Source: a virus. Taken from it: 64,000 nt of DNA. Location of the stretch: the IMG/VR virus record IMGVR_UViG_3300037851_000950, positions 36,702 to 100,701 of that record. One strand, given 5' to 3'. The translations under genes and the position numbers were made by a program. A model generated the notes under the pieces. The model was given only the letters and a program-made list of their open reading frames with translations. It was not told the DNA's origin and ran no database searches. The stretch's first letter is position 1. The number at the start of each line of letters is the position of its first letter. Below, piece after piece: positions 2-60,444 of this stretch.

Positions 2-1516
2 TACGATGACGCTCCTCCTGTCGAGCGCTATCAACCGGCGACTACAAAAAAGCAAGCGGGCAAGTCTGCGCAAGCAAATACAGAGTCGCAGTCTATTTTC
101 AGAACACCTGAAGAAATGGGGCAGTATCTAAGCAACCTTGCAGGCAGATTCAACAGAGGATTTGTTAATCTTCCCGCAACTTTTGCAAACATGCCCGCCG
201 ACATTATCAATTTGTTTGGCGGAAATATTCCTGAAGAACAAAAACTGGGTTATGGTTGGCAAACCAATGTGACTGGTGAGTTAGCAAAACTACCCAATTC
301 TCCACTTAAAGTGGATTCTACTATAAACGATATTCCAAGTCAAATCATGGAGGCACTGCCCATTCTTATGACGGGAAGAACTCCGGCGGGGCAAGTATTC
401 AAATCAGCACCAGTTACTGTGAAAGCTGCTGATCTTGTTGGAAAAGGTGCTGCTAAAGTAGAAAGAGCTACGAAAGCTACCGCAGAAGTAATTCCCAATA
501 CCGCCAAAGCACTTACCAAAATGGCTACCAGGAGAGGGTGGGTTCCCAGTGTGGCGAATCTTATTAAGTTTCCTGAATTGAGCAAGCTTTCCAAAATAAG
601 ATCTGCAGCAAAATCCCAAACTGTCGATTGGACTACCGGAATATCTCCTGAAAGAGTTGAGGCCATCAAAAAAATGATGTATGAAATGGACATGGGCTTT
701 CGCTCTGGTGGGAAACTTCCCAAGGCTCAGGATGGACTTAAGTTGCCAAAGTATCCTTGGATGACAGATCCCGAGATAAAACTTGAACCGGCCTCTGCAA
801 CCGTAGCGCTCGGCAATCGATTGGCCCAAACTCCCGATACTGCTCGCGAAGTAGAAGGTGGAGACGAACCTCCCCCAAAAGAAAGCGTATTCAAGAAATT
901 CATGAAGGGTGATGGTCTTGAAACGGCCGTCTCCATAGGATTCCCCTTGCTCGCCTCCCAGCTCTTAAAGGGGGGTTATGGCGGTGCCGGTCGTCCGGTC
1001 GAGAAAGTTGAGCTGGCCGTAATGCCCGAGCAAGATCTTCCCGGAAGACCCAAACCGATGTCGCTTACTACTTCTGACCGTTGGAAAGGCGTAGATGCAA
1101 GTGTCGGTCGTGCAGATCAGGTCAATCGCGATAATGCGAATACTGTTGCGGAGAATGCTTGGCGTATGCAAAACGCCATGCAAAAACTGGCAACTCGTCA
1201 GCAAGGATTCAATACGATCAATCAAGGTCGTATGTTCAATGCTCAGAACGTAAATCAGAGAGCTGGTCAAGATCAGTACATTGCTCTCCAGCGAGATATG
1301 TTCAACAAGCAGATTCTGAACAGCATTCTCGAAGGAACTTACGGCAACGTGCTGAAAGGTATCCGCGAACCTCGTGTCAATCGTGCAGCCGAACAATCTG
1401 AAAATGACCGCACGATCATCAAATACGGTGATGAAAATTCTCAGGCATATAAAGAAGCTCTGAAACGGATGGGTTATTCGATTTCCAAAAGAGAAGGAAA
1501 ATCCAAAGCATCTTAG
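2..1516 (+). CDS. Virion cargo/ejection protein (crAss-like), probably 5'-truncated by the window
   Basis: The frame of track ORF 116..1516 is open back to position 2. It contains FRSGGKLPKAQDG, a GG-x-x-x-K-x-Q-x-G motif of the kind seen in crAss-like cargo proteins, has a Q/N-rich helical C-terminus, and lies upstream of the vRNAP genes. Confidence 0.55.
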   Translation, partial: YDDAPPVERYQPATTKKQAGKSAQANTESQSIFRTPEEMGQYLSNLAGRFNRGFVNLPATFANMPADIINLFGGNIPEEQKLGYGWQTNVTGELAKLPNSPLKVDSTINDIPSQIMEALPILMTGRTPAGQVFKSAPVTVKAADLVGKGAAKVERATKATAEVIPNTAKALTKMATRRGWVPSVANLIKFPELSKLSKIRSAAKSQTVDWTTGISPERVEAIKKMMYEMDMGFRSGGKLPKAQDGLKLPKYPWMTDPEIKLEPASATVALGNRLAQTPDTAREVEGGDEPPPKESVFKKFMKGDGLETAVSIGFPLLASQLLKGGYGGAGRPVEKVELAVMPEQDLPGRPKPMSLTTSDRWKGVDASVGRADQVNRDNANTVAENAWRMQNAMQKLATRQQGFNTINQGRMFNAQNVNQRAGQDQYIALQRDMFNKQILNSILEGTYGNVLKGIREPRVNRAAEQSENDRTIIKYGDENSQAYKEALKRMGYSISKREGKSKAS

Positions 1517-1542
1517 TTAATTCGTCGCTAAATTGATTTCAC

Positions 1543-3228
1543 ATGGCAGGAGAATATCCGTTCATAAATGCTCCCGGATCGGGTTGGCACGATACTTCCC
1601 CGAACTCAGGTACTGTCGCTCGTCAAATCCGTTCACAAACCAAAGAGAGACTCCTTCAGGAGGCTCAGTCGTTATTGCCGGATTCCAATGCTCTCTCTGA
1701 GCAGCTCATCAAGTACAAGCTCTCTGGTGGAGATCGTAATGTCTTTGTAGGACAACTCAACGGTATGATAAACGAGTACCTCAAAGAGTTCAACGAGAAT
1801 CCTTACTATGCTTTTACTAAGCGTGGGAAGGATCTCTCCAAAAAGATGCAACAGTGGGTGAATCATCCCTCGCTGACTTCCTTGGAAGCAAATCAAAAGC
1901 GGCTTGAGAAAGAATACGAACGTGCAGAACGTGACGGTATACTTGGCAAAATCAACGTGGTCGGAGGTAAGATTTCGGCCTACGACACCAAGAACAAACG
2001 CTTCACCTTGGTTTCTCCGGAGAACATCGACTATAAGCGCTATCAACCGTTGACTGTTCAGGACGCCTTGGATTTTCAAGGCAAAACCGGATTTTTCAAT
2101 CAGGAAGATCCATATACACCAAACGATCCGTTGGAAATATCAATGGCTTCGGACAAGGAATTGCGGGATCATATCAACGCAATTCTTACCGACACAGGAG
2201 ACACAACTCTTGACGATACTCTCGCAAAGCTTGAGAATGTTACGGGAAAAATGAGCGATCTGGCCACAAGCCGGATATCTTCAAATTCTCAGCAGCTCTC
2301 CATGAAAATGAACGCACTTATGTCTGCGGCCGGTCTTTCGGGAAACTACTGGGATACTCTCAAATCAAATGCCTATTCCGCACTTCGTGATGCTAAGGGT
2401 GCATTCCCGAGTGAAGAGCGGGTCAATCAGGAAGCTGTTAACTATCTGAAGAATCTCATCTTCAGTCGCAGCAAGTATGCAGAGAACATTACTCCTCTTC
2501 CCCAGCATATCCTGAAGGCCACTGGCAAAGGCGATGGTTCTGAAAAGGATACAAATGTGGGTGTTGTACAGGGACTTCTCGAAAATCAAATTGGATCTGT
2601 CATCGATAATATAACGAACGTCAATCCTACGAATCCTCGTCAAATGTATACCGGCAGACAGGTTCCTTTGATAAATGTCTTGGGAGCAAATAACCAACTC
2701 TACGGCGCACTCCCTGCTCCCGCAAATGCTGTTCTCAATTCCTTTGTAACGCAGGCAGGAACAATAACCACTCAGCTCGGAGATGTCCCTCTAAAAGACA
2801 AGCGGATGATTATTCCTGCAAAAGATGGAAAGTTTACCATTGTGCCGGATGGCTCTAAGGCGTGGGTTATTATGGATGCGTACGTTCCCGAAGATAATTT
2901 CCAAGAAGAAGCGGGGGCAAATATAAACGCTGTTGAAGTTGACGAGAATGACAAAGGTTATATTGAGAACCTTCTTTCCATCATGAATAAAGAGTCCGAA
3001 ACAAATCCATTGATGCACTTTCCTGACACAGGAGGATTTATGGGCAAGGATTACGTAAAAGTTGCTATCAAATTCGAGTATGACCCGAATCTGAATGACA
3101 TGTTCAGAGTAGCGACAGATAAGAACCCCTTGTATATGCCTCGTGAAGGAGCTAACTTGTTTGGTACAAAAAAACAGAAAGAACAAGCTGATCCGAATTT
3201 GCAACGAAATATTTACCAGGAAGAATAA
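1543..3228 (+). CDS. Putative internal virion/ejection protein, 561 aa
   Basis: Long ORF between the cargo gene and the vRNAP gene, helical N-terminal half, no catalytic motif recognised. Called by position only. Confidence 0.45.
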   Translation: MAGEYPFINAPGSGWHDTSPNSGTVARQIRSQTKERLLQEAQSLLPDSNALSEQLIKYKLSGGDRNVFVGQLNGMINEYLKEFNENPYYAFTKRGKDLSKKMQQWVNHPSLTSLEANQKRLEKEYERAERDGILGKINVVGGKISAYDTKNKRFTLVSPENIDYKRYQPLTVQDALDFQGKTGFFNQEDPYTPNDPLEISMASDKELRDHINAILTDTGDTTLDDTLAKLENVTGKMSDLATSRISSNSQQLSMKMNALMSAAGLSGNYWDTLKSNAYSALRDAKGAFPSEERVNQEAVNYLKNLIFSRSKYAENITPLPQHILKATGKGDGSEKDTNVGVVQGLLENQIGSVIDNITNVNPTNPRQMYTGRQVPLINVLGANNQLYGALPAPANAVLNSFVTQAGTITTQLGDVPLKDKRMIIPAKDGKFTIVPDGSKAWVIMDAYVPEDNFQEEAGANINAVEVDENDKGYIENLLSIMNKESETNPLMHFPDTGGFMGKDYVKVAIKFEYDPNLNDMFRVATDKNPLYMPREGANLFGTKKQKEQADPNLQRNIYQEE

Positions 3229-3236
3229 ACGCATCC

Positions 3237-6200
3237 ATGGAACCAATCAATAACTCCAAAGAATCACCGACTACACTTCCTACCCCCACCACTCCCGTCA
3301 CCGGCAAGGCAACCCCTGCGCTGGGCCAGAAGTTTGACTGGTTTCTTGACGATCTGGACGGTAAGAACGCTAACCCGGCGGACCTTTACCACTCCGGTAT
3401 TCGTCCGGAACATCTTGCAATGCACGATGCTGAAAAGTATTGGAGCAGACCGGAGATTCAGCAAAAATTCAAAGCTCAGTTTGGAGAAAAGGCAAAAGAA
3501 CAATTCGAGAATGTGTACAAGCTGTCGAAAGATCGGCTTCAAGCATTCCGCCAGGATGCTTACGATATTGATGCTACCTCGACGCCTGTATTCGATTTTC
3601 GTACACCCGCTGCAGAACGCCTGGCTGCAGCCGGGAAAGGCTCGTTCAGCAAGGCTTCGCCTGTACGTAAAGAAGCTCCTGCCGGTGGGATAGATCCTTG
3701 GGGGCGTCAATTGCTCGGGATCAACCGTAATACCCGGGTCATGTCGCTCGGGCCCCCTCAACATGGTTGGAGAGAGACGCCCAACATTAAGGTAAAGACT
3801 CCTGACGGACGTTACGTCACTGTCGAGGAATACAAGAAGATTGATCCGGATGCTACGTTTGTTCATGCGGTAAATGAAGACGGATCTCCGATGGTTGGCG
3901 AGGATGCTCAAAACTATCTTCGTCCGCTTGCCTGGGGTGAAGAGAAAAGAACTTATGAACAATACTGGACAGGTGATTCTTGGAACGTATTTGGGTCCAC
4001 TGGAATCGGTACTCCGGAATGGTATGCTGCAAAATGGCTACCCAAGAATGTAATGAATTTTTCGGCCGATACTATCGATGCCATGGCCGAAACATTCAAG
4101 CTCGCTGATAACTTTTTCCAGACCGGCGTGCAGAGTGACTGGGACAAAGCGATGACCAACATTCAGAATGTCACCATGTCCAAGATGTGGGGGTCAACAT
4201 CTGAATACGGAATGAGCGATTGGAAAACCGCAGAGGGTCTTGGAGATGGCTTTGCTCAAGTCGGCATGCAATTGCTTGGCATGATGGGAGTCATCAAGGG
4301 AGTGACTGGACTGTCTCGTGTTGCAAAGCTTGGAGCTGGTACACGCGCCGGTTCTCGTGCGGCTCTTCTGTGGATGTCGGCTATTGCTTCCGACGATTTT
4401 GCCAAAGAGGGTCGTGAGATTGGACTCACTCCCAAAGAGCAGGCAACTGCTTGGGGCGCATATATGTTTGGTATGTACTATCTGGAGAAGCTTTCCGAAC
4501 TGGTAGTCGACCCGATTACTTCCGGATTCCAGGTAAAGCAAGCGGTAAAGAAGATGCTCATTCCTTCTCTTGCTGCAGCCAAAGCCACCTCACCAACAAA
4601 AACACTCGCATTGCCCGGCATTATCCAGGCAGTCAAGTCTACTCGTGCCTGGCTTGACGATGGTCTCCGGGAGATGATGACTTCTCCCTCCAAACTGGTC
4701 AAGTATACTGCCGCAGGCGCTACCGAAGCGACTGAAGAAGGTCTGCAGCTTGTCTGGGACAAGGGATTTAAGACTGGATACAACGAAATCTATGGTGACT
4801 ACATCGGCTCCCCGGAGTATGATCAACTCACCAACCGTAACAAGGACGCTCGCTTCAAGCCCAATTGGGATACTTTCTCTACCGAACTCGCTGCCAACCT
4901 CACCATGGGTTTTGCCGGCGGTGTGTTCTTCAAGTTTTCTCAGAGCATGTTCGAACGTAACACGCCGACCGATCGTCGTGAAGTGCTCGCGTTGGGAGCC
5001 ATTGAAGGTGGTTTCGAGAAGGCCAATCGTTATCTCGACGATCTGTGGAGCCGTGATAAAATTCTTCCCGGCCAGAAGTATACCGATGCTTTTGGCAAAG
5101 CGCTGGAGAAAGGCAAAGAAATGTCCTCTCGTTCCGGAATGGCTTACCAGGCAATGAAGGCCGAGCTCCGCATGGCCGAGCAACTCTGGAATTCCAAGAA
5201 TCTTGCTATGGCAAAACCAGTCATGGCAGATCGTATTTCATACCTCAACGAAGAGACCGTTGCTCGCTATACTTCCTTCAAAAAAGATGTAACCAGTAAA
5301 CTCGAAGAACTGGACAAAATCCAGGGAGAGATGCTGGATAACAAGTTGAGCGACGTTCAGATCAAAGCTGCCGAAGCACGAGCCCAAGTTCTTGAAAAAG
5401 AACTCAAGGATATGGCGGAAGGCAAATATGCAAATCGCTATCTCCACGAAGCAATCTTTCGGGTTGATCCTCTTGTCAGAAGCAGATATACTGAAGACGC
5501 CAATTCAAATCTGGACTTCGAGCAATTCGCCAAATTGAATGCCTACATGACTGCTCGTGTAACTAACGCAGCAGAACTCCAAGGCAAAACACCCAAAGAA
5601 CTACTCAAACACATTCTTGAGAATCGTACACTCGGTTATAGCGTCGAACAAGCAAAAGAAGCAGTTACTGCTCTTGATGAGGAGTACGGTGTAATTTCTG
5701 AGGAGATGCCTGACGGAACTATCAAGAAGAAACTTCCGGAAGGAGATCTCGGCAAACAGTATGCACAAAAGAAAGCACTGATTGATTCCATGATTCTCGG
5801 TCCCGAGTGGACTGACGAACAGGCCAAGGTTCATCGTATTCTCTCCATTGATCCGCTCGACGATTTTTACGCTTCGTTTACACCTGATGGATCTGCAGGT
5901 GTTGCCTTTAAACGTCAGATAGAGGTATTGGAGAAAGAAGCCATGAGCTCTATGGCTACTGGAACCAAGGTGTTCGACGACACTACCTCGATCAGTGCAA
6001 TTGCGAGCCAGGTCATCAAGCGTATACAGCAGGCTGAGGCAATGGCCAATACTAACCGGGAAACCAATGAACTGCTTTCTAAAAACGGAATCTCGGAGAA
6101 ACATCAAACCATCGATCTGCCTAAAAAGGAACAGATCATACGACAGCTTTCCGAAATGCTTGGAAGGCTTCAAACGCTTTATGAAGTTGCTCTTGCCAAC

Positions 6201-9200
6201 AAAGGCAATTTCTACAAAGCTTCCCAAGAAGCTGCTGACCGGCAGAGGATGTATACCTCGACCATGATGACTTCGCTCATCAATGCCGGAATAAGAGAAC
6301 CGAGTTACAAGCTGTTCTTCGAGACTCTTGCACCGGATGCCGCAGCTCTTACAGCGGATACCAATTCCGATAATGCTTTTGTTCGTCTTTCTAATCTGCA
6401 GAAAAAGCTTCACGATTACTTCCAAAGCGACGCGAAAGCTGCGATCACCCGGTTTATGATGATGATGGAAGAAGGCCGAATCTCTGAAGACGAGTACGGT
6501 TACATCAAAGCCATTATCTCCCAAGATCCAAAGAACTTTTACAGTGCTTATCAGGACGTGCTCAAAGGAATGACGGCCGATAACCGTACTCCATTTCCCG
6601 CACAGCTTCGCAATTCCTATCGTATCGCTGCCCATCTTTCAGGGAATGACAATGCTTGGGAATTCTACAATTCCAAGCGTCGTGAAGATGGTGCGTACCC
6701 ATACGTCGTAAACCTCAACGAATCGTTTTTTCTGGATCTGCCCCAAGGCGAGGGTAAGACTTTCATCGCGGCTGTCGGCGTGGCTGCTTCTCAAAAGCTC
6801 TACGGCGGAGAAGCAGTTCTGTTTGCCAAGCGTGATTGGGTTGTCAAGAAAAACATTGCTGAGTTTGAAAGGGTCGGTGCAAAAGTGAAACCTTCCCCGG
6901 GATTCAACGGATCGTTCGAAGCTATCATGAAGTTCGTCGAGAACAAGAGCATGATGGAGAACGTACGTACGATTGTAATCGATGAGGTACAGCAATATCG
7001 GAAAGATCAGATTGCCGAGCTTGATAAATTCATTGGACTGTTCAATCAACAACAAGATCCAAGAAATCGGGTTCGTCTTCTTTTCCTTGGAGATTCTGCT
7101 CAGTATGGTCCTATGCACCCGGACCCTAAGCATTTCAATCTTCAATATCACATTGGCGATAACCCTGGTCGCTCTATTGTTGAGCGTGGAGAAAGCACAG
7201 GCTTCAATTTCCGTTCGGGCAATACCGACATCAATACTGTTCTCTCCCACTTGCGAAGCATGTGGTTGCAGAACATGGTTCGTAACTTCCCGGAGATCGT
7301 AGTTAAATACAATCTCAAGAACAGAAACGGTGTGATGATGACCGACGATATGGTCGGTTCGCTCAAGAACATTGTCGGCGCTCTTGGCCCGAACTCTCCG
7401 GACTACGTGGTGATTGCTCCGCCCGAGCGACATTCGCTTTACACCGCCGCTGGCGTACCCTCCTCTCAGATTATGGATGTAGAGCAAGCCGGAGGAGGTT
7501 CCTGGAAAGTTGTTTTTATAGATCAGGACTTTGATCTTAACAAACCTGGCGGTGCCAGATCCAACGAGATATCCAAGGCACTCACTGCTGTTGGCCGTGC
7601 TGCTGAATTTGCGGTCATTGCAAACAAACCAAGCTATGCGATAAGAAGTGTCGAGGGAGAATCTATCGGTAAAGAAAATCAGTTCTCGACCGAAGAAATG
7701 ACCCGAATGCGCACCAAGGAATTGACCTCTCTTGAAAACGCCTCACTTCCTGTAAATCCTACTATTGATCCGGTAATCAACAGAGAGTATACTTCTGTCA
7801 CCCTTGAGACTGTTGTTAAGACCGAATATGCAGATGTCAATACTGACATCAACGAACAGATCAATAAGATGGTGGCAAGTACGATCGGTAAGTTGCCGAA
7901 CTACGCGCTGACTCATACATACTACAACTACGCGTCTTCCAAATCTGCCGATGGTACTGTCAAACAACTCTCGGAGCTTGAAGGCAAGAAACTCAAAAAG
8001 CAATTTTTCAATGGTCCCACGATGCCGTTTGAAGCAGATCGTGTTTCTTATGAGCTGAGAATACAACGCAATCAGTTTCCTACTCAAAGCGTCTACACTG
8101 TTGCGGAGCAAGAAGATCCTGCAATTCGTCACCACGAACGCATGGTTCTCTACGCCAAATTTTCAAAAGGTGGTGTTGAAATGGGGGAACTTTCTGTGGG
8201 GGAACTGAGTGTAAAAGACCTTAAGATTCCGGGAGATCCCAACGCAGTGTTTGCAATTCCTCTCAAGACAGATGAGACCTTTACGGCACTGCTTCGGTCA
8301 AACTATGCAGAAGCCGCGTCCGGTCCGAATTTCCGCAATCCTTGGAAAGCTCTTCAGAAGGAGCGCGAGCAGGGAGTGAATCGAACGAAGCTCGAAAAGA
8401 ATCTCGACGATTTCATTGCCGAGAACCCGGACATTAATTTCTCGACAAAGGTATGGCACCGTACTACTGCACCTGTTGAAGGTGCTGGTAAAGCGGAAGC
8501 CACACCGTACATCTTCATTTCTGCCAAATACAGTCCTGAAGAGATGGATGAAATTCTCAGGGTTGAACAATCAAGCCAGTATGAGAAACGTCCGTACGGA
8601 ACCAAATTGAGGATCTCCGATCAACAGCTTGATACCTGGCAGCAGATGGGTATTTATGGTATCCCTATTGAAGGGGGTATCGAATATCCATTTACTACAT
8701 TTCTGGAGAAGATGGCAGGCGATGCCGCACTGCCTAAAGCAGATCGCACTTTCTACGTTACTTACAACCAAGAAAGAAGACTTCGTGATTGGCTCATTAA
8801 GACGTTGTCACCAAAGAATCCCGAATTCGATTTCGAAACAAAGGACGAGTTTATCAAGAGTAAACTGTTCTCCAGCAACTCAAGAGAAGATCAAATTCGT
8901 CGTTATCTCGCAACCAAAGTCGCGCACTCAATTTATCCCCGCGGCATGCGGGAGGTTACAGAGCCGACGGAAGAAAAGGGAAGCTGGGTAAGCCGAAAAG
9001 AAAATAAGGGAGCTTTCGGTATCAAAGATGACACCAAAGATTATCAGTTGTATGCAACTGATCTCATGTTGTCTCTTTACGAGGATTCTATCAAGAAAGA
9101 TGTCGGTGAGGGTAAAGACGGACGTATGTCAGACGTCGCTCTTGCCAAAGAAGTTCTCAATGAGATTTCTCGCAAGCTCTTCCCCGACGGTTGGTGGATG

Positions 9201-12200
9201 CACTCCAGCATTATTGAAGGTTCCACCGTTGAGCGCAAAGCTCCGTTTGGAGCCAGTGCAATCTCACGCGGGGACTACACAATCACTAATCTGCTCAATG
9301 TTCCCAGACCAGTCATGCAAATTCCAATCGACGCAATCAACAATGCGTTGAATGGGTCTGTACCTTCTGAGGTGAACATTACAGTAGAGCAGCGGCCGGC
9401 AGTAAAAGAGGAAACCAAGCAGGCAGATATCATTGATGCCGACAAAGATCCCGACACGGGATTGCCTATCGGAGAATACGTTCGCAAATTCGAGGGTGCT
9501 CCTGATACGATTGAGGGCATTCAGGCTCGTTGGTTTGGCAAAGGCTCTGATTTTTATTACCTGCACGAATTCACAACCTATTTCAGAAACCAGGTTTACA
9601 ACTCGGTCTTCAATCTGCAGTCTGAGACTCCTCACATTGCTACTGAAGAAAGCTTGAACGATTCTCTCTCTGCACTGCGTCGTTCGATTTCCCAGCGCAT
9701 CAAAAGCTTCCAAGATGCCGGAATAAATCAGAGTCAGTATGCTGTTCGAGGATTGCTTCGAAACTCCAGAGAATCGTACTACGCGTATGTAATGCACTAC
9801 GAGTTTGATGCACTCCTGAAAAACTACGTTCAATCTATTCGAAAAGATCCTGCCGGGCGCTATCGTTTTGTCTCTGACAAATTCTCATTCAACCAGATGA
9901 GCGATTCTGGTCACGAGGTTTCTCACATCGGAACGGGTTCAAAGATGGTTGCCCTCCACATCTACAATACTCCGTTCATTGAAGTCGCTTTTGGGAAAGA
10001 CAAGGATGGAAACATCATTAAGGAATACGTAAGTAGTCGTACTCTGAATCAGGGCGATTATGTTCGCTTGATTCGAGATATGCAGGATAACGACATCACC
10101 TCCAGGGAGAAGGCGCTTGCCTATTTCTCCCTGAATGGCAGTGAGCCTCAGAACGATCTGGATCGGATCAAGCGCTCCATCTATCTCCGTTTCCTTGCAC
10201 CTGCCGACAGATTGGTTAAAGTCAACGGGGCGACGTATCACTCGATGGAGACTGCTCCGCGCAATGAGCGCGAGATGCAAATTGCTGCAGATACAGTAAC
10301 TGCACTCATTTCTTTTCTGGCATCTGGCAATGTAGTTGATTATGTCAAAGTTTATCTGCACGCCGATAATCAGACAAATACTTCTGGCCGATTCACCGGT
10401 AATAAAATGCAGGCGGACTTCTTCCGTGCTGATATGGAAGCTTCAATCAAAGGTGCCTTGGAAATGAATCTCGAAAAGAGGGTTGTAAACTCCAAGACAC
10501 CTCCGCTTGCTTACTTCAGTCGCCATGATCAGGTAGCCACTTTCAAATTCAACAACGGTCCCGGTAACGAAGAGACTTTACGAGTACGCTTCAAAAACAA
10601 TGCGTATGAAATTACTGTCGGAGATACTAAAGAGCGTCCGCTCGATCCCGCTGTAATTGGCAATTTCTTCCGTCACGTTGGTTTGGGAGCGATTGATGGA
10701 AAGATGTATGACAAGATTGTGCAAGCTCCTGGCTTTGGCGCATCCATGTATGAGATTGCCAAATTCTTCAAGAAAGAAGATCCGAGCAAAGAGATATTTG
10801 AAGGAGCGTCTCTTTTCGCCTGGGAAGAATTCTCCAAAGCAATCGGGACTGTTCGGGATATTCAGGCGTCTCAGACCTACAATCTGCTTGGCAAACCAGG
10901 CAATCCTGTAAATCTTGTATCTCTTAGCAATCCCGTAGATCGCACCAATCAAAAGATCAAAGAATATCAGACGTCTCCTGTTCAGGGACCGTTGAATGTT
11001 TTGGATATTGTCAAAGGAGATCTTGGTGTTGAGGGGGTTCTTCTTCTCGAAGGGCTTATCGTACAGGGAACGCGAAGAAGCAAGTCGGTTAGCGAATTGA
11101 CTCCTCGCGAGTTTTTCAAGTTCATGTTCAGAGATCTGTATCTTTCTTCTCTGGCCAAGCAACTCAAACCTCAACATAAGGTCAACATCCCTTTTGTCAC
11201 TCGTGCCTATGCGGACAAAGGAATGGCTCCAGCGCCCATCTTCTCAAACAATGAATGGTTGCCGCGGCATAACGACGTTGTCGATATTGCTTTTCTTCGG
11301 AATCGCGCAGTAAAAAGCAAGCATCGTTATTATGTAGCTCTTGGCCAGGCAGCTTTGCAATCCTGGAAAGACGCATTTGCTGCGACGGGAATTTTGAAGA
11401 ATGTTCCTATTAGCTCTGCTGCTTCTCCGGAAGAACTAATTGCTGCGCTTCAAAGAATCAATGAGATCATTCCTACTTTTGACGACGCACAAGTCAAGGT
11501 GTTAATGAAAACGGGTTTGGTGAAAGAGCTGCACTATCGTCTCAAAGCTAATGCAGACGGTACTCTTTCTATGCTACCAATGAAGCAATCGTTTCTTGAC
11601 AAGATCGATCTGCAGAAGTTAGATAAGCGCATGGCTGCAAATCTTGCCAACTTCACGACTGAGTACTACAAGATGAATGTGAAGAGCGATGAGCTCAAGC
11701 AATATCTCGATCGTATTGGTATTGATGAAGACAGTGCAATCAAGTCGTTCTTCTGGAATCAAGCGTGGGTCGCTCATAACTTCAATTCACTTCACGCTGG
11801 AGCCATTGAACAGTACGGCACTCGTGATGAGTATTCCGATATGGCAAAGCGTGCGTCCGGTCAGTCGACCCATCGTTATCGCTTTGTTGAGAGAGATAAA
11901 AACTGGGTTCCTGACGGAGCGCCGCGGAATGTAATTGAAGGTCGCAAACTTGGTCAGACGTCGAAGACTATGATCATGAATGACTTTGCTGTTACCCGAC
12001 CTTCGATCTCGTACATGGGCAATAAAGTGTCAACCGTTAAAGTATATGACGGTCTTGCGTTTCACAATCCATACGCAAGATTGCAGATGCAAGCGTCGTA
12101 TGGTGGAAACTTTGGATTCCAGGTAGGTAAGAACCTCAAGCCGATCTCTTCGTTCATGCGTCCTATTGTCGGATCTTCCCGACTCGACAAATATGCTTCC

Positions 12201-15200
12201 TTTGAGATTACTCCTCAGATGAGTCTGCAAGGAGATCGCTTCATCATGGCGCTCGACAGAACAATGAAGAGTGCAATTCCTTTCGGTACAACTCGCGGCA
12301 GAGTAGAACCGATTGCGCTCCCTGGAGGCGGTTCAGCGGCTAATCTTTTTGAGCTGGAGACCTGGGCCCGGGCCAACAATATCACCGAAGAACAGGTGAT
12401 GGACATCATGGTTCAAAACGGAGTTCAGGACGATTATATTCAGGAAGTGATCTTTGACTCCAGTGTAAAAACAGGAGCTTCGAATATCAACTGGTTCAAT
12501 TCTCCCGAAGAGTTTATCCAGGCGGCAAGTCAGCCAGGATTTGCGCCGGTCTACCTGGAACGTGGAAACAGTGAACGAGGATTAATTCTTGATGCCAACA
12601 AGGAATCCGACGGCGCAGATGGTACGCTCTCGACTCAAAACGTGGGTGCCTATCTTCAACACGAGTCTACAAGAGCCGAAGGCCTTGAGATTATCAACGC
12701 GATTAACGTCATTGGTAATCTGGAACGTAAGCGCGTTAAGACCGATCAGGTACAAGACGTTGTTGAGCCCCTGCTGAACAAAATCAAGGAGCAGGAAAGT
12801 GCGAATTACATATCCAGTATTGTTGCCAAAGGGGGAGTTCTTCCTATTGACAACATACAGATTCTTCGCAAAGCGTTTAGCGCGTTTGCTTCTTCTCTTT
12901 CTGACTCTACGGTCGGTCTGAAGATGGCAGGTGGCCAGCAGGTCCTTGCCCCCGCAACAGGTATCTTTCGTGCAATAGATGTCAATGGTCGTGGAATTCT
13001 TGCCGGTGCTGCTGAAAATCAAGCAGGAACTTCTCGCGAACTTCACGGATTCGACGCTTTTAAAGATGGTAAGTCCGTTTTGGATACTCCTATCTGGAAA
13101 GCCCTCAAAGAAGCACACGATGCAAAGAGGTATGATGAGTCTGCAGTTTTGCGTCAACAGCTTTACCAAGAGTTGAGTAATGGGTGGGTGTTACAGCAGG
13201 CAGAGTGTGTAGTTTCCCCGATTCATTTCTCCAAATTCAATATTCCGAAAGGAGCGCAGATTCCAGATGTAACCCCGGACTCTTTGGCCGAGTGGAACTT
13301 GAGAGCTCGTTTTCGCAAGAGCTGGATTAAGGAAGAAGGAGATATTGCTCTGTGGGAACAACTCGTCGAAGAGCGTAAAGCCATTCGTAACAATACGGCT
13401 CTCGATCCTCAACAGCAGGCGGTTATGCTCAATGAAGTCGAACAAAAGTTTGATCTCATTAAGACTAAGTACATTACCAGCATGAAGGTTCAGGATGCAG
13501 AAAAGTACGTAAAGATGTACGATTCTTTCCTGAAGACACTTGACATATTGCTCGGACGTATCCCGGGAACGACAATTCATTCAATTTTGCCGATGACAGC
13601 GGTTGGGTTTGCATGGGATGCGGACAATCGGGTTCATGTTCACCCCGATGTTTTGATCTACCAGGGTGCCGACCAGGATATTGATAAGGGTAATATTCTC
13701 GCGTTTGATCCCGACCAAGAGGGTCTCATTGAAATTCCTTCAACTGTCGAAGACGCTGGTCGCTCAGTGCCGGCGCTGAAGAATCTAATCGTACAGAAAA
13801 TGTGGGACGCTTCCATGAAACCAGGAGCCGCCATCATTTCTACGATGCCGACAGCTACTCAGCTTCTCGACGAAAAACTTGCGGAGTTTGAAGGAGAGAC
13901 CAATGAGTATCAGTCTGAAGACAGTCCTGTTTCTGTTGCTCAGAAATATGCTGAAGGTCAGCTTGCAAAGAACGCCGTGGCCACGTTGGCTCTTGGTTTG
14001 AAAACCTACAACGGACTTGTCTATTCGTCAAGCAAAACCGGCAAAAGCTATGATGCCTGGACACCCAAGAGCCCGGCTCTTTACAGGGGTGGAAATCCCA
14101 TGGCTCTTGTCGATAACATCAACTCGCTGCAATTCTTTGACGAATTCATTCAAGCAGCCCTCGATAACGCCAAAGATCCCAAACTCGCAAAGGCGGCGAT
14201 GAATCCCGACAATGCCCAAGTTATCAACACGCTGGGGCTTTATGGGTATACTCCTTCGCAAGTAGTTGACTTCATTCGCCATCCGCTTGTGCGAGAGGTT
14301 TTCATCAAATATGCCGAGCAAAAAGAACTCAAGTATGTTCAGGATTTTGTAGCTCCTCTCGAATTCCTCAAAAATTTCGCAGAGACAAATCCGGCACCTG
14401 AACTTGAAGATCTTGGATTTTTGATGAGGATTGGAAGGCAGTTCTCCGCAGTAGGTACGATTTTCTCTCTCAACAAAGAGGTCGCCAATAACTTTTTCGA
14501 AGCCTACAAGATTCGTCGTGCATTCAATGATTTGACCGGAGGAAAGGAGTTCAACTTCGAAAAGTTTGCAGATATCATTAACGATCCTGCAGAACGCAAA
14601 AAGATGAGCGACAACTGGAATGCCCGGTTTGGCGGAAGTAAAGAGCGAGTGAATATCATGGAAGTCCTTGAGGATAACCAACACATGCTTTCTTACTTTG
14701 CTTCTTTTGTACTGGCTCACAAGACTTTCCGCGATAAGTCAAAGATGTATGATTACCTCTTCAGACTTGTGGATACTGTAAGCTGGGAAAGGATTACTGA
14801 CGAAGCGAAGTTCAATTCTGTTCTTGACTTCATCTACGGAATGGCTGTCGATAGTTATCTGCGCGACAGGCAAGTCACCATTACTCTTGATGGAAAAGTG
14901 TATGATCTCGGAGTAGTAGGAGATACTGAAGAAAACTACGGTCGCGTGTCGTTCATGAGAGATGTGCCGTATTACTTTACTCCGGAGTCTGGGTCGATTC
15001 GTCCAAAAACAGCAGGATCTGTTCTGGAGTACCTTACCCAAATGAGTACGGAAGACGGCACGATTATTAAGCCTTGGGGTAATCTCAGAGACTATCCTGA
15101 CGATCGCAAGGCAATGGCCATGCAGGCAATGACCCTTGCGGATCAGATGCTTGAATATCCTGCTGGAGACACCTCACCAAACAGGGTATTGTTTTACTAC

Positions 15201-16499
15201 TCCTTGATCAAAGACAAGGGAGCAATGTCAGGCACATCGTTTACCGAGATGTTCAATTACGACACTCGCGTAATGGGAGACTTCGACAACTATGTTCACA
15301 ATTCTTTTGCACCCACTTACTTCGTATCTCCTGATTCCACTCACATTCAGGACTTGGAATTGATTTTGAAGATGTCAAGCAGATTTTCCTGGCAGATGAG
15401 CCTTGAAGAGCTTGAGCTTCTCAAAAGCAAAGAGATGAGGAAGAAGCAAGAGGCAATGCAACGCAATCGTATTTCAATTCCTTACAGCTCCAACTCGGCT
15501 CTTAACGGATTGATCACCGCTGACTCCTTTAAGGGAAGGGTTGTAGAAAGCAGAAATATAGTTGTTCTCCCAGTAATCGTTGAGTTTACAAAAGGTAAAT
15601 GGGTAGATCCTCAGACTGGAAAAGAGGTTGATCCTGACAAGCTTCCTACCGCTCAAAACTCAATTGGCGAAACTATGGTTTGGAGCAAGAAGCAAAACAG
15701 CTATGTTATCAAATCAGAAAAAGACCGCGAAGATGAAGAGGGCGAACGTACATTCTCTTCGGAAGAAACCGGATATGATGACAATCTGATTTACAAAGCT
15801 CATCGCAATCGAATCAGTCACGGCATGCTTACCAAGTTTGCCGAAATGCTCGGTCAGAGATTCGGAGTTCCTGTTCAGGTAATGACTACGGCTCAGATGA
15901 TTGACAATTACGGCCCTTCTCGCGCAAAGGCCAAGGGATTGATGATTGAGTCCAGCGGTACAGTGATTATTAACTCTGACAAGGTTACTATCGATACTCC
16001 AATTCACGAAATCAGTCACGTCTTCATGCTCGCACTGCAGCGGGAGAAGCCCGAATTATTCCGTAAGATTATCGACGAAGCTCTTGCTCACGATTATGCC
16101 AAAACAATACGTGCAAAGTATCCCGAAGAAACCGATGAGTATATCGGCATGGAAGTCTTCGCAACCCTTGCCGGCATGCAATCGGCAAACAAGGTCGTGG
16201 ATTTCTACAACAGGAACTGGTTTACCAGGATGAAAGATACCTTGCGGGAATTCTTTAACTGGCTTGCAGAAAAGTTGAATTTTTCCCCTATTTTTGACAG
16301 GGCACTCTCTGTCAACGACAGTTTAATGAGTCTTATCGACAAAGTCGGTGAGTCAGCAGTTTCGGCACTTAGGCTTACATCTAACGAAATGACCACACTT
16401 GACATGCTTGGTATCCGTCTCGTGCCCGCAAATCAGAGACTTATGGCTATTCGGAACCGCCTCCGGGCCGAAAAACGTGTTGAAAAAATCTGCGATTGA
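3237..16499 (+). CDS. Giant virion-packaged DNA-directed RNA polymerase polyprotein (crAss/phi14:2 gp66-like) with N-terminal membrane helices, SF1 helicase-like domain and C-terminal zincin, 4420 aa
   Basis: Catalytic DxDxD in GADQDIDK (DQDIDK at nt 13671-13688), preceded by RIPG and followed by LDNAKDP. Other crAss-vRNAP-type motifs: DMAKR, YDG, KYAS, SVKTG, STQ. SF1 motifs: PQGEGKT, IVIDE, GDSAQ, TAVGRA. Zincin HEISH at nt 16005-16019. Hydrophobic helices and EATEEGLQ in the N-terminal ~570 aa. Confidence 0.9.
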   Translation: MEPINNSKESPTTLPTPTTPVTGKATPALGQKFDWFLDDLDGKNANPADLYHSGIRPEHLAMHDAEKYWSRPEIQQKFKAQFGEKAKEQFENVYKLSKDRLQAFRQDAYDIDATSTPVFDFRTPAAERLAAAGKGSFSKASPVRKEAPAGGIDPWGRQLLGINRNTRVMSLGPPQHGWRETPNIKVKTPDGRYVTVEEYKKIDPDATFVHAVNEDGSPMVGEDAQNYLRPLAWGEEKRTYEQYWTGDSWNVFGSTGIGTPEWYAAKWLPKNVMNFSADTIDAMAETFKLADNFFQTGVQSDWDKAMTNIQNVTMSKMWGSTSEYGMSDWKTAEGLGDGFAQVGMQLLGMMGVIKGVTGLSRVAKLGAGTRAGSRAALLWMSAIASDDFAKEGREIGLTPKEQATAWGAYMFGMYYLEKLSELVVDPITSGFQVKQAVKKMLIPSLAAAKATSPTKTLALPGIIQAVKSTRAWLDDGLREMMTSPSKLVKYTAAGATEATEEGLQLVWDKGFKTGYNEIYGDYIGSPEYDQLTNRNKDARFKPNWDTFSTELAANLTMGFAGGVFFKFSQSMFERNTPTDRREVLALGAIEGGFEKANRYLDDLWSRDKILPGQKYTDAFGKALEKGKEMSSRSGMAYQAMKAELRMAEQLWNSKNLAMAKPVMADRISYLNEETVARYTSFKKDVTSKLEELDKIQGEMLDNKLSDVQIKAAEARAQVLEKELKDMAEGKYANRYLHEAIFRVDPLVRSRYTEDANSNLDFEQFAKLNAYMTARVTNAAELQGKTPKELLKHILENRTLGYSVEQAKEAVTALDEEYGVISEEMPDGTIKKKLPEGDLGKQYAQKKALIDSMILGPEWTDEQAKVHRILSIDPLDDFYASFTPDGSAGVAFKRQIEVLEKEAMSSMATGTKVFDDTTSISAIASQVIKRIQQAEAMANTNRETNELLSKNGISEKHQTIDLPKKEQIIRQLSEMLGRLQTLYEVALANKGNFYKASQEAADRQRMYTSTMMTSLINAGIREPSYKLFFETLAPDAAALTADTNSDNAFVRLSNLQKKLHDYFQSDAKAAITRFMMMMEEGRISEDEYGYIKAIISQDPKNFYSAYQDVLKGMTADNRTPFPAQLRNSYRIAAHLSGNDNAWEFYNSKRREDGAYPYVVNLNESFFLDLPQGEGKTFIAAVGVAASQKLYGGEAVLFAKRDWVVKKNIAEFERVGAKVKPSPGFNGSFEAIMKFVENKSMMENVRTIVIDEVQQYRKDQIAELDKFIGLFNQQQDPRNRVRLLFLGDSAQYGPMHPDPKHFNLQYHIGDNPGRSIVERGESTGFNFRSGNTDINTVLSHLRSMWLQNMVRNFPEIVVKYNLKNRNGVMMTDDMVGSLKNIVGALGPNSPDYVVIAPPERHSLYTAAGVPSSQIMDVEQAGGGSWKVVFIDQDFDLNKPGGARSNEISKALTAVGRAAEFAVIANKPSYAIRSVEGESIGKENQFSTEEMTRMRTKELTSLENASLPVNPTIDPVINREYTSVTLETVVKTEYADVNTDINEQINKMVASTIGKLPNYALTHTYYNYASSKSADGTVKQLSELEGKKLKKQFFNGPTMPFEADRVSYELRIQRNQFPTQSVYTVAEQEDPAIRHHERMVLYAKFSKGGVEMGELSVGELSVKDLKIPGDPNAVFAIPLKTDETFTALLRSNYAEAASGPNFRNPWKALQKEREQGVNRTKLEKNLDDFIAENPDINFSTKVWHRTTAPVEGAGKAEATPYIFISAKYSPEEMDEILRVEQSSQYEKRPYGTKLRISDQQLDTWQQMGIYGIPIEGGIEYPFTTFLEKMAGDAALPKADRTFYVTYNQERRLRDWLIKTLSPKNPEFDFETKDEFIKSKLFSSNSREDQIRRYLATKVAHSIYPRGMREVTEPTEEKGSWVSRKENKGAFGIKDDTKDYQLYATDLMLSLYEDSIKKDVGEGKDGRMSDVALAKEVLNEISRKLFPDGWWMHSSIIEGSTVERKAPFGASAISRGDYTITNLLNVPRPVMQIPIDAINNALNGSVPSEVNITVEQRPAVKEETKQADIIDADKDPDTGLPIGEYVRKFEGAPDTIEGIQARWFGKGSDFYYLHEFTTYFRNQVYNSVFNLQSETPHIATEESLNDSLSALRRSISQRIKSFQDAGINQSQYAVRGLLRNSRESYYAYVMHYEFDALLKNYVQSIRKDPAGRYRFVSDKFSFNQMSDSGHEVSHIGTGSKMVALHIYNTPFIEVAFGKDKDGNIIKEYVSSRTLNQGDYVRLIRDMQDNDITSREKALAYFSLNGSEPQNDLDRIKRSIYLRFLAPADRLVKVNGATYHSMETAPRNEREMQIAADTVTALISFLASGNVVDYVKVYLHADNQTNTSGRFTGNKMQADFFRADMEASIKGALEMNLEKRVVNSKTPPLAYFSRHDQVATFKFNNGPGNEETLRVRFKNNAYEITVGDTKERPLDPAVIGNFFRHVGLGAIDGKMYDKIVQAPGFGASMYEIAKFFKKEDPSKEIFEGASLFAWEEFSKAIGTVRDIQASQTYNLLGKPGNPVNLVSLSNPVDRTNQKIKEYQTSPVQGPLNVLDIVKGDLGVEGVLLLEGLIVQGTRRSKSVSELTPREFFKFMFRDLYLSSLAKQLKPQHKVNIPFVTRAYADKGMAPAPIFSNNEWLPRHNDVVDIAFLRNRAVKSKHRYYVALGQAALQSWKDAFAATGILKNVPISSAASPEELIAALQRINEIIPTFDDAQVKVLMKTGLVKELHYRLKANADGTLSMLPMKQSFLDKIDLQKLDKRMAANLANFTTEYYKMNVKSDELKQYLDRIGIDEDSAIKSFFWNQAWVAHNFNSLHAGAIEQYGTRDEYSDMAKRASGQSTHRYRFVERDKNWVPDGAPRNVIEGRKLGQTSKTMIMNDFAVTRPSISYMGNKVSTVKVYDGLAFHNPYARLQMQASYGGNFGFQVGKNLKPISSFMRPIVGSSRLDKYASFEITPQMSLQGDRFIMALDRTMKSAIPFGTTRGRVEPIALPGGGSAANLFELETWARANNITEEQVMDIMVQNGVQDDYIQEVIFDSSVKTGASNINWFNSPEEFIQAASQPGFAPVYLERGNSERGLILDANKESDGADGTLSTQNVGAYLQHESTRAEGLEIINAINVIGNLERKRVKTDQVQDVVEPLLNKIKEQESANYISSIVAKGGVLPIDNIQILRKAFSAFASSLSDSTVGLKMAGGQQVLAPATGIFRAIDVNGRGILAGAAENQAGTSRELHGFDAFKDGKSVLDTPIWKALKEAHDAKRYDESAVLRQQLYQELSNGWVLQQAECVVSPIHFSKFNIPKGAQIPDVTPDSLAEWNLRARFRKSWIKEEGDIALWEQLVEERKAIRNNTALDPQQQAVMLNEVEQKFDLIKTKYITSMKVQDAEKYVKMYDSFLKTLDILLGRIPGTTIHSILPMTAVGFAWDADNRVHVHPDVLIYQGADQDIDKGNILAFDPDQEGLIEIPSTVEDAGRSVPALKNLIVQKMWDASMKPGAAIISTMPTATQLLDEKLAEFEGETNEYQSEDSPVSVAQKYAEGQLAKNAVATLALGLKTYNGLVYSSSKTGKSYDAWTPKSPALYRGGNPMALVDNINSLQFFDEFIQAALDNAKDPKLAKAAMNPDNAQVINTLGLYGYTPSQVVDFIRHPLVREVFIKYAEQKELKYVQDFVAPLEFLKNFAETNPAPELEDLGFLMRIGRQFSAVGTIFSLNKEVANNFFEAYKIRRAFNDLTGGKEFNFEKFADIINDPAERKKMSDNWNARFGGSKERVNIMEVLEDNQHMLSYFASFVLAHKTFRDKSKMYDYLFRLVDTVSWERITDEAKFNSVLDFIYGMAVDSYLRDRQVTITLDGKVYDLGVVGDTEENYGRVSFMRDVPYYFTPESGSIRPKTAGSVLEYLTQMSTEDGTIIKPWGNLRDYPDDRKAMAMQAMTLADQMLEYPAGDTSPNRVLFYYSLIKDKGAMSGTSFTEMFNYDTRVMGDFDNYVHNSFAPTYFVSPDSTHIQDLELILKMSSRFSWQMSLEELELLKSKEMRKKQEAMQRNRISIPYSSNSALNGLITADSFKGRVVESRNIVVLPVIVEFTKGKWVDPQTGKEVDPDKLPTAQNSIGETMVWSKKQNSYVIKSEKDREDEEGERTFSSEETGYDDNLIYKAHRNRISHGMLTKFAEMLGQRFGVPVQVMTTAQMIDNYGPSRAKAKGLMIESSGTVIINSDKVTIDTPIHEISHVFMLALQREKPELFRKIIDEALAHDYAKTIRAKYPEETDEYIGMEVFATLAGMQSANKVVDFYNRNWFTRMKDTLREFFNWLAEKLNFSPIFDRALSVNDSLMSLIDKVGESAVSALRLTSNEMTTLDMLGIRLVPANQRLMAIRNRLRAEKRVEKICD

Positions 16500-19400
16500 T
16501 GGCCTGCATTGAGAAATACAAAGCTCCGAATGGCGAATTCTCCCACCTTCATGCTCAGTTGGTAGACCAGCTTGGAAGCTGGCGAGGAGATCATGCCTAT
16601 CTGGAGATCCACGACGAGGCGTTCAAAACCTGGTTTGGAGACTGGGAATCTGAATATGGTCTGCGCAACAGGGGTAACAAAAATGCAGGCACTTTCAATC
16701 GGTCAGAGGGTCCCGGGGAGCCTGTGCCATACCCTTCTCTGGATGAGAACTGGGAACCCAAGATCTTCTGGCACGGAACCAATACCGACAAGATCAAAAG
16801 CTTTAACCAGGAGGAAAACAACTTCACTACTGACCGCGAATCTGCCGAAGACTATGCCCGGGAAATGGCATTGCTCAAAGGAGGATCTCCCAAAGTGTAT
16901 CCTGTTTACTTGAGAATTCGTCAAAGAGACTTGCGTGCAGGCCATATCAAAATCAATGGTGATCGGGTTATTGTTACCGCTGACGCACGCGACAGTATCA
17001 AGTCGATTGAGAATGACGGCAACTATTCCAAATGGGGTAAGATATTCGAGTCTTCGATAAAAGAGGAACAGCCAGAAATGGATCCCAAAAAGCTTCGGCT
17101 TAAGCTGATTGATTCTGCTGCTTTGATCCAAGCACCTACGGGCGAGAACGCTAACTTTTACGGATATCAGGGCAAGTCCCTGGATCGTACCTCAACAAAA
17201 GTTGACAAGTATGTACGTTATCGAGGTGATGAAAGCGGTAAGGCTTATTCCGATGTGGGCACTAAGTACCACAAAATCATGGAGCTCTTGGTCAATGGCG
17301 CTTCTCCCGAACACATCGGAGACCTTAGTAACGAACTGGTCAGAGCTGGCTTTCCACCAATCGATGATAAAATTGAAGGAGCCTTTATCCGAGAAATGTG
17401 GTACGAGATTCAAGAACTGCGGAAGACAGGAGAGCTAATTGCTGAATTTCGTGCGGCCCGTATTGACAAGGGTTATGCTGGTACGATTGACTTGCTTTAC
17501 ATTGACAAGAAGACAGGCAAAGCAAGGATATACGATCTGAAGACAGCCCACGAAACTCCGTGGAAAAAGAATCCCCCTGAAGGTACGAACATGACCAAAG
17601 ATGTTTGGTCGATTTCTGACTTCAACTACTATAAGGCAGAGCGATACGCGCTTCAAACCGCCTACTACGAGGATTTGATTTCTGCCGGAGATACCGTAAC
17701 CGATCGTCCTCCTCTCCAGGTCGAGGGTATATTCGTTATGCCCACAGAAGTCAAATACGACGACCAGGGTAACGTGGCGTTGGTTCGCCTTCTGCCCACT
17801 GAGAACGTCAAACAGTGGTCTCGCGGAAGCGGAAGATCTTTCTATTCAAACGCGGTTCGCCAAGTTAAGAATGATCTGGAAAATCAAGAGATTGCCGAAG
17901 GCTTCAAAGGACGTCCGACCGGGCTTGGTGATTCTGGTAACTTTCTACGCCAGGCGTTGGGAGCACACATCGATTCTACCGAAGCGCTTGATGCACGCGC
18001 AACCAATTTTGTAGAGCGCAACAGTGATGAGAAAACATTCACTCTGATGGATGAAAAACCTGTTGCTTGGAGAAGTGACAACAAGCAGGACAGAATTGCC
18101 CAGGTAAAGGAGCTGTTTATTCGCATGGACCAGAATCACGCCGGTAATATGACTTCCGGTGTAGAGACGTTTTTCGGCGGAGAATTCAGAAATCCGAAAG
18201 CAAGTAGTGCCGGATCGATGTTTACTCTCAAGCACAACACTGTTACTAAGGAAGGGGCGATTACGGTTACTTATGCTCGTTCTTATCGCCTTCACAGTAT
18301 TCTGAACTACTCCAATGCCAAGAACGTAATCAAGCTGTCGACCATTAAAGGGTTCGAACAGTACTCCGACGTAATGCTCGTTCATCGTGGAGATGGTGCC
18401 TACGATCTGCTTACCTTTACCAACATCCCTCACTACACAAGATTCGACGTCAAGAACAAAGACAAGAATTTTACCCGCAAGCTTCGTGTCGATGGGGACA
18501 GTATTTATGGAAACCACTTCTCACCCTATACTTCGGAGAATCTCGGAGTAACTCTCCAGAACAACTTCGGAGATTTTACCCGCATGCGCTTGGGGCTCAT
18601 CGCTCTTGAACTTCAGAAAGAGAATCCTTCGATGAACGTCAACTCTATTATTGTTGATTACATCGCAGATAAGAGTCTTACCAGTCCTCACGGGATACTG
18701 CTCGACCAGTTAACCCCACAGATCAGTCATCTCAACAATATTGAGGCAATAAAGCCGATTATGCCGGAACGTATCCGGGAAGTTATTGGAACTGCTCGCA
18801 AGAGCAATCTTGCTGCAGGGGATGCACTGGCCGAGCTTAATACTTTCCTTCAAGCCGAATTGAGCGAGCCTTTTGCGGATAAGCTTTCCAAGCAAATTGA
18901 TCGGTTCTCACGCAATGAAATTACCCGGGATGAGCTCGCCAATGAGCTCATGAACGGAGTAAACGGCATGCGTCATTATCTGCGCCAGAAGAATCTCAAG
19001 AGTGCGGACGTAGATCAAATGAAGAATTTGCTTTCCTCTGATCCGTATTTCATGGCCCTTGCCAGGGCATGGGTAGTTTTGAAGGGAATGGGATTTGACC
19101 CCGAAAAGGATGTGAGCGATCAGTTTCTTGGGCAGATTACTTACTGGATCAAATCTCCAACCGCAACCGGCCGCAAGACACTCGATAAGTTTTTTGATCT
19201 TTTCCGACAGCATGTCGACAACATCAAGCAGGAGATGCAAAAATTCCTGCATGTCAAAGAACCTGTTTTCAGAGATCTGGTTAACGAAGATCCTCTGGTC
19301 AAACGAGGTATTCCTGTTGTAGATTCTCACGCCGGAGGTTCAGATGCGATCCTGGCGATGACTCGTTCTGTAATGGAACCGCTCATTATGACTCGCCTGG

Positions 19401-54309: not shown

Positions 54310-54319
54310 GTGTTTTGAT

Positions 54320-56860: not shown

Positions 56861-56870
56861 CGTGTTTTGG

Positions 56871-57833: not shown

Positions 57834-57835
57834 GA

Positions 57836-58393: not shown

Positions 58394-58409
58394 TTGCTAA
58401 AAATTTAGA

Positions 58410-59120: not shown

Positions 59121-59130
59121 CGTTTTTTAG

Positions 59131-60273: not shown

Positions 60274-60274
60274 C

Positions 60275-60433: not shown

Positions 60434-60444
60434 ATTACATTGGT

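Follow-up and report, generated by a model that had tools for sequence, protein, structure and literature searches.

A predicted SF1B-type helicase core within the giant RNA polymerase polyproteins of uncultured crAss-like phages

The stretch of viral DNA analysed here, 64,000 nucleotides covering positions 36,702 to 100,701 of IMG/VR record IMGVR_UViG_3300037851_000950 (hereafter the window), contains an uninterrupted open reading frame (ORF; 3237..16499, + strand) for a polyprotein of 4,420 amino acids (aa), P0002, whose full-length relatives measure 4,367-4,866 aa. We find that aa ~1089-1470 of this carrier (6501..7646, +) most likely form a compact superfamily 1 (SF1) helicase/translocase core of the 5'-3' SF1B type, judging from sequence signatures and from a structural model in which N-terminal helices with the Q motif are followed by RecA-like domains 1A and 2A. 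The same chain holds a region resembling the virion RNA polymerase (RNAP) of crAss-like phages and, as sequence comparison indicates, the fusion is conserved in at least two uncultured clades that are deeply divergent. Our preferred reading, to which we assign a probability of about 0.5, is that an SF1B-type translocase module, injected with the polyprotein, would open DNA for a polymerase that prefers single-stranded DNA (ssDNA).

The relevant point of comparison is gp66 of phage phi14:2 (2,180 aa; PDB 6VR4), which transcribes ssDNA efficiently and double-stranded DNA weakly or not at all. The original prediction, a note made from the letters of the window, had invoked this preference in proposing a helicase fused to the polymerase, and the preference is borne out by the gp66 paper. 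Furthermore, gp66 inhibits itself through a domain that blocks the cleft and has to be moved aside, it stays inhibited until after ejection, and its eukaryotic homologue QDE-1, which in vitro shares the preference for ssDNA over duplex, needs the helicase QDE-3 and RPA to use DNA. According to its authors, gp66 has no known domains outside the polymerase core.

Fold and motifs of the helicase domain

An AlphaFold2 model of aa 1100-1520, built with an alignment of the relatives, reached a predicted local distance difference test score (pLDDT) of 79 and a predicted template modelling score of 0.81. The top Foldseek matches to this model are almost all SF1 helicases (probability 1.0), and they include Upf1, nsp13, RecD2, Dda, Dna2, RecD and the helicase part of SLFN11. 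Structural alignment with VIA-align gave Z scores of 22.5 for DSH9, 21.6 for T4 Dda (278 residues, 3.5 Å), 20.6 for UvrD and 19.9 for RecD2, with lower values for HelD-RNAP (16-18) and Pif1 (~16). The tandem RecA-like domains 1A and 2A are present in the model, which matches known structures at up to Z 22.5 over its residues 1-375. The original prediction had staked its SF1 call on such a fold and had proposed a Foldseek comparison with RecD2, Dda and UvrD; because the model shows the tandem core, the call stands, with the predicted fold, Foldseek and the VIA-align matches to Dda, RecD2, UvrD and Pif1 all behind it.

Profile searches point the same way. On the window copy of the domain, Pfam helicase families all stay below their curated cut-offs, ResIII, DEAD and AAA_19 being the ones that match; among PHROGs the window copy matches the Dda-like phrog_325 (E 1e-3) and, among PDB sequences, Pif1-family chains over motifs II-III. 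Family profiles run against the PDB matched yeast PIF1 (E 1.7e-5, then 3e-6 with the match reaching through motif IV) and 8bnv (E 5e-7), and the relatives matched the Pfam families AAA_30 (E 2.5e-6, three of four members), UvrD_C_2 (7e-4), PIF1, AAA_19 and Viral_helicase1. These SF1B profile matches of the window domain and its relatives agree in direction, yet they lie below curated cut-offs. In the ESM Atlas, a protein language model resource, the neighbours of the domain are SF1 families exclusively.

The family also carries the signatures expected of SF1B, namely A-T-L after DE, a small residue after GDxxQ, and QG in motif V. Taken together, signatures and profile matches make it probable that the domain belongs to SF1B (Pif1/RecD/Dda) and not to the UvrD-type SF1A. 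Thus, the RecD half of the 'RecD/UvrD-like' label given earlier probably holds, on the RecD/Pif1/Dda side, and the UvrD half probably does not. The SF1B helicases T4 Dda (PDB 3UPU), DSH9 (8JX6), D. radiodurans RecD2 (3E1S/3GP8) and Pif1 (5O6B, 5FHD) share with the window domain a tandem RecA-like core, the motif order Q, I, Ia, II, III, IV, V, VI, a DE with small and hydrophobic residues after it, GDxxQ, the xRA of motif VI and, in the relatives of the window domain, the QG of motif V. They align with it at VIA-align Z scores of 19-22.5 over ~280 residues, yet their identity to it is only 12-17%. The window domain differs from them in being embedded in a 4,420-aa chain, in lacking the QG of motif V and in being shorter than Dda.

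All of the motifs I-VI quoted in the original prediction were recovered by frame-1 translation of 6720-7631, inside a single ORF, and at the coordinates claimed (PQGEGKT at 6741-6761, the D of DE at 6981, the G of GD at 7089 and motif VI from 7581). We add two further elements, a candidate Q motif, TPFPAQL (6588-6608), in which Q1123 is nearly invariant in one family alignment and invariant in the other, and a motif Ia region, VLFAKRD (6816-6836), which forms an aligned column block. Because of the upstream Q motif, the conserved domain starts near nt 6500 (aa ~1089) rather than at 6720; the conserved block ends near nt 7646 (aa ~1470). Motif I, or Walker A, reads LPQGEGKT (aa 1168-1175; 6738..6761), with an invariant G-x-G-K-T that includes K1174 and with L in the window copy at the first G of GxxxxGKT. 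Motif II, or Walker B, is IVIDEVQQ (D1249 and E1250; 6972..6995), where the relatives have DEATL; the Walker elements QGEGKT and IDE of the window copy are thus both present, and they are invariant in the relatives. In motif III, LFLGDSAQYGP (Q1289; 7080..7112), the residues G, D, Q and G are invariant, and the GDSAQ core aligns to the GDxxQLxPV of Pif1. Similarly, motif IV, FNFRSGN (R1326; 7203..7223), has an invariant F and R, and its FRS aligns to the FRQ of Pif1. Motif V is degenerate in the window copy (7476..7520), with EQAGGGSW in place of the family's EQAQGKQW. Motif VI, LTAVGRAAEFAVI (7581..7619), contains VGRA with R1454, the presumed arginine finger, which is nearly invariant in one alignment and invariant in the other.

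Conservation supports the assignment. An exhaustive phmmer search with aa 1100-1520 against 1.84 billion representative sequences returned nine proteins, all of them giants of 3,400-4,900 aa or fragments thereof, and the helicase is present in every relative that covers this stretch. The family consensus reads QGxGKT (I), IVIDEATL (II), GDxxQxGA (III), FSFR(S/T)GN (IV), PEQAQGKQW (V) and SAVGRAK (VI). K1174, D1249/E1250, Q1289 and R1326 are intact in the window copy and invariant in the relatives, and R1454 is likewise intact and invariant or nearly so. These are the residues that SF1 enzymes such as PcrA, RecD2 and Pif1 use for ATP binding and hydrolysis. As the alignment is invariant at the catalytic residues of motifs I-IV and VI, and as the region is predicted to fold as an SF1 core, the motifs are more than a chance resemblance.

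The earlier remark that motif V lacks QG..E is correct for the window copy (AGGGSW). However, the relatives keep AQGxQW or QGKEW, with the QG retained and the acidic position mostly Q instead of E; the proposed 'attenuation' is therefore specific to this lineage and not a family trait. In the window copy the ATP-site residues are intact, but changes have accumulated in motif V and just behind DE, so ATP hydrolysis may drive DNA movement less tightly than in the relatives.

Such drift could fit a decayed, or a purely structural or regulatory, ATP-binding module, acting as a scaffold or as a nucleotide-gated switch, for example for refolding or for releasing an autoinhibited polymerase. HelD, an SF1-like RNAP partner and not a classical helicase, offers a parallel. 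In favour of such a module, the window copy is alone in its changes from QG to GG and from Q/E to S in motif V and from DEATL to DEVQQ; furthermore the core is short, HelD-RNAP is among the structural matches, and gp66 has the cleft-blocking domain that needs displacement. However, the window copy keeps the lysine, the DE pair, the glutamine and both arginines, none of which varies across the family. In addition, the domain shares 33-36% identity with its nearest relatives, compared with 32.6% for the whole protein, and it forms a local island of conservation between poorly conserved linkers. An identity equal to the protein average, together with this island, argues against decay, and we regard a relic or switch as improbable.

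Polymerase part and spread of the fusion

The polymerase part of the carrier was recognized through structure. A model of aa 2750-3900 (11484..14936, +), of low confidence (pLDDT 57), had as its sole significant Foldseek match the two-barrel, crAss-type virion RNAP 6vr4_A (E 7.7e-7), with the next match at E 0.35. A phmmer search of the whole 4,420-aa protein against PDB sequences did not match gp66, so the link to the RNAP required structure. Within this region lies a catalytic-type DxDxD motif, DQDID (aa 3479-3483; 13671..13685, +), in the context GADQDIDKGN (aa 3475-3484), and GADxDxDKGN is kept in all full-length relatives. The second position of the motif varies: Q is found in four of the five full-length relatives, the fifth having DHDVD, and phi14:2 and a second family described below have DFDID.

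The genome around the carrier is also of crAss type. Upstream of the giant, PHROGs identify the large terminase subunit (TerL), the portal and the major head protein, and the sole matches of TerL are to Crassvirales, at ~25% identity. The order of the genes runs parallel to that of phi14:2 from g094 to g066, the giant lying in the cargo block after the tail genes. From the 6VR4 fold match, the conserved DxDxD and this context, we conclude that the carrier is a crAss-type virion RNAP polyprotein, and on the evidence of its genes the host phage is a very divergent crAss-like phage. Carrier aa 2750-3900 match 6VR4 and no other structure significantly, DxDxD is common to both proteins, and the carrier gene follows TerL, portal, major capsid protein and tail block in the same order as the gp65-gp67 cargo block of crAss-like phages. 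The two proteins differ in that gp66 has no known domains outside its polymerase core and reads DFDID, whereas the carrier adds the predicted helicase and reads DQDID. The phi14:2 protein gp67 has no Pfam helicase match. We considered whether the N-terminal half of the carrier corresponds to gp67, as gene order alone suggests, and rejected this for want of any BLASTP similarity.

The original prediction had placed the helicase inside the virion RNAP. It does lie in the same chain as the gp66-like region, but it sits in the cargo-like N-terminal half and not in the polymerase core, ~1,300 residues before the gp66-like stretch and ~2,300 before the DxDxD motif. Two HExxH motifs also occur in this chain. 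The C-terminal, zincin-like one (HEISH, aa 4257-4261; 16005..16019, +) recurs as HExxH in the corresponding position of four of five full-length relatives and was not found in the fifth, P0005; its region has no Pfam match, and the assignment is by motif. A second, HEVSH (aa 2226-2230; window 9912-9926), falls in the interval that separates helicase from polymerase, in a position corresponding to the conserved HEVFH of the second family, but it is not conserved in the window protein's own family.

Scanning JGI and ENA metagenome contigs with an alignment of the RNAP part (A2) yielded four loci, L009-L012. Three of them, L009, L010 and L011, belong to the window family and share its neighbours, an upstream ORF of 561 aa and a downstream ORF of ~1,480-1,680 aa (1,476-1,684 aa, at the place of a 1,604-aa ORF in the window). 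The fourth, L012, stands much further off, since no more than 52 residues, surrounding a canonical DFDID, can be aligned. Its giant ORF (2-15049, +) nevertheless carries the canonical SF1 set GNAGTGKT, VIVIDEIAAF, VLGDPSQV, IKFRS, EIAGIERDE and YTAASRAKQY, which matches AAA_30 (E 7e-6) and, above cut-off, Viral_helicase1 in Pfam. This helicase is homologous to the window domain (hhalign probability 96.3%, E 1.8e-9), and tblastn links the RNAP part of L012 to gp66 as well as to genes annotated as 'putative RNA polymerase' in many Crassvirales.

Together with eight relatives (P0012-P0019; 4,794-6,327 aa), L012 forms the second family, which has one common layout. An N-terminal part of ~1,250 aa is followed by a Walker A near aa 1270 in seven of the eight (one N-terminally shorter chain is without it), HEVFH near aa 2400 (HEAFH in one), DFDID near aa 3800 (DFDVD in one), a further HExxH near aa 4900 in seven of eight and a tail of ~1,400 aa. 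The helicase lies ~2,500 aa upstream of DFDID.

Searches by other routes returned nothing related. The gene by megablast and the domain by tblastn had no match among 50,697 phage records, and INPHARED held no tblastn relative of the window-type or L012-type helicase. Viral contigs searched with the domain and with alignments A1 and A2, and metagenome contigs searched with P0002 alone, gave no related loci. A profile of the domain alone (A3), built from the loci, did not match longer proteins of 789-2,250 aa, a negative of little weight.

Large injected proteins that combine enzymes are already known. Iyer et al. (2017; Iyer, Burroughs, Anand, de Souza and Aravind) described polyvalent proteins of phages and conjugative elements in which helicases stand beside zincin metallopeptidase (MPTase) domains. 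Like the carrier, these are very large and probably injected, and they combine a zincin-like motif with nucleic-acid enzymes that include helicases. However, their helicases are of the SWI2/SNF2 type (SF2), or rarely cellular-type UvrD on actinomycete plasmids, and the carrier's is SF1. The text of Iyer et al. (2017) mentions neither RecD nor SF1, nor any fusion to a virion RNAP, and the searchable literature text, which leaves figures and Yutin 2018 outside its coverage, holds no description of a helicase domain joined to a crAss virion RNAP. SF1B helicases have been described before, as have crAss virion RNAPs and polyvalent proteins that bear helicases; joined in a single chain whose layout is conserved, they are, as far as the searchable literature goes, apparently new.

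By analogy with polyvalent proteins, the helicase could be an independent effector, one of several modules that act separately (the zincin-like part and, in the next gene, a nuclease-like part being others) and enter with the DNA. It would protect that DNA or counter defences of the host, for instance by removing host proteins or nucleases from it, would have no direct part in transcription, and would owe its fusion to shared delivery only. The precedent of SWI2/SNF2 and, rarely, UvrD-type helicases beside MPTase domains speaks for this, as do the C-terminal HExxH of the carrier and the downstream 1,604-aa ORF (16496-21310, +), which overlaps the giant's stop at 16496-16499 and matches an exonuclease PHROG at aa 245-392. 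The two HExxH motifs that bracket the polymerase part in the second family would likewise fit self-cleavage into separate pieces. Against an effector role, the distance from helicase to DxDxD is nearly the same (~2,300 and ~2,500 aa) in two families that can barely be aligned, and the relatives found all lie in chains with an RNAP part or are fragments too short to tell. Furthermore, no stand-alone relative was found among the 1.84 billion representatives, and no defence-related domain adjoins the helicase. We therefore consider an independent effector unlikely.

Proposed role of the module

If the SF1B-type module does open DNA for the polymerase, the following course of events can be proposed. 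By analogy with crAss-like phages, the virion would carry the polyprotein and release it into the host along with the DNA. After refolding in the ATP-containing cytoplasm, the module would bind one strand of the entering phage DNA and translocate along it, opening the duplex or keeping it open, and the polymerase could then initiate and elongate early transcripts on the opened DNA. On the non-template strand, a 5'-3' motor would travel in the direction of the polymerase.

Other polymerases are known to work with such motors. QDE-1 with QDE-3 and RPA, coronavirus nsp13 on the replication-transcription complex and HelD on bacterial RNAP all pair an SF1 or RecQ motor with a polymerase, and both nsp13 and HelD are among the structural matches of the window helicase. 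In those systems the partners are separate polypeptides, whereas here both are encoded in one reading frame.

Several points weigh against this proposal. Helicase function of the protein is itself predicted, and its packaging in the virion is deduced from synteny. UvrD, an SF1A enzyme, scores within 2 Z units of Dda, so structure alone leaves SF1A versus SF1B, and with it the polarity, undecided; the polarity of UvrD is 3'-5'. The core is short, the Q motif and motif VI together bounding ~340 aa, compared with 439 aa for Dda. SF1B helicases split strands with accessory 1B (pin) and 2B (SH3-like) parts, which this core may lack; segment lengths and the secondary structure of the model indicate one beta-hairpin after motif IV. 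Moreover, the window copy alone departs from all relatives at motif V (QG to GG) and after DE (DEVQQ, not DEATL). Furthermore, ~1,300 aa separate helicase and RNAP-like region and the polyprotein may be cut, so any physical coupling of the two is hypothetical.

A further point comes from classified phages. Using A3 together with AAA_30 (PF13604), we scanned phi14:2, MT835470 (A3 only), Azobacteroides phage, cr124_1, cr273_1, cr115_1, cr114_1, cr116_1, cr126_1 and cr111_1. Within the sensitivity of these hidden Markov models, the domain went undetected in these nine classified Crassvirales or crAss-like genomes, phi14:2 among them with no match to either profile. The one exception, cr115_1, gave a 12-bit AAA_30 match restricted to the Walker A region; this match (NC_055898.1 57356-60451) falls in a 400-aa open frame of a Suoliviridae genome. 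The original prediction had proposed a count of crAss-like virion RNAPs carrying the domain; at least two uncultured families carry it and, apart from this marginal match, none of the nine classified genomes does so detectably. As phi14:2 and the eight others show no such domain, crAss-type virion RNAPs can work in vivo without a fused helicase.

The original prediction had also raised a force for DNA entry. In this case the ATPase would pull or thread the phage DNA into the cell after the first segment has entered, much as transcription draws in the DNA of T7 and N4, a role for which the position of the giant in the cargo/ejection block next to the tail genes and the hydrophobic, glycine-rich stretches of its N-terminal part could be cited. 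However, SF1 enzymes move on single strands and not on duplex, and the polymerase itself could drive entry. We consider a genome-entry motor highly improbable.

A bolder form of the preferred reading, which we put forward tentatively and hold to be doubtful, is a self-sufficient injected helicase-polymerase machine. Here the SF1B motor would run just ahead of the two-barrel RNAP on the non-template strand, within one chain or one complex, so that duplex phage DNA is transcribed independently of host factors. Such a machine would go back to the ancestor of a large uncultured crAss-like branch, and the gut Crassvirales studied to date would have lost or replaced it.

Genome context and significance

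The window also encodes a replication module (50993-62348, - strand) with a DnaB-like helicase (59131-60273), a Sak4-like annealing protein, a primase, a RusA-like resolvase, an exonuclease VIII-like protein, a phrog_16 helicase (60999-62348) and an AAA ATPase matching a 'porphyrin biosynthesis' PHROG. Because separate replicative helicases are present, the SF1 module of the giant is not the replication helicase. The full record is linear and 100,701 bp long, and CheckV puts its completeness at 58%. Given that crAss-like genomes usually measure ~100 kb, this phage could have a far bigger genome, or the strong divergence of its lineage could make the CheckV figure untrustworthy. On the 4,420-aa protein, PHROGs v4 finds no family and Pfam nothing above cut-off, so standard pipelines would leave it as 'hypothetical'.

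The presence of recognizable enzymes in such a protein means that the cargo proteins of uncultured crAss-like phages hold functions that current annotation, for example with PHROGs, misses entirely. The fused chains are, in addition, natural helicase-plus-polymerase constructs for biochemistry. Most importantly, how a crAss-type virion polymerase can reach the template in a duplex genome when infection begins is a question to which a helicase in the same frame, in two deeply divergent families, offers a concrete and testable answer.

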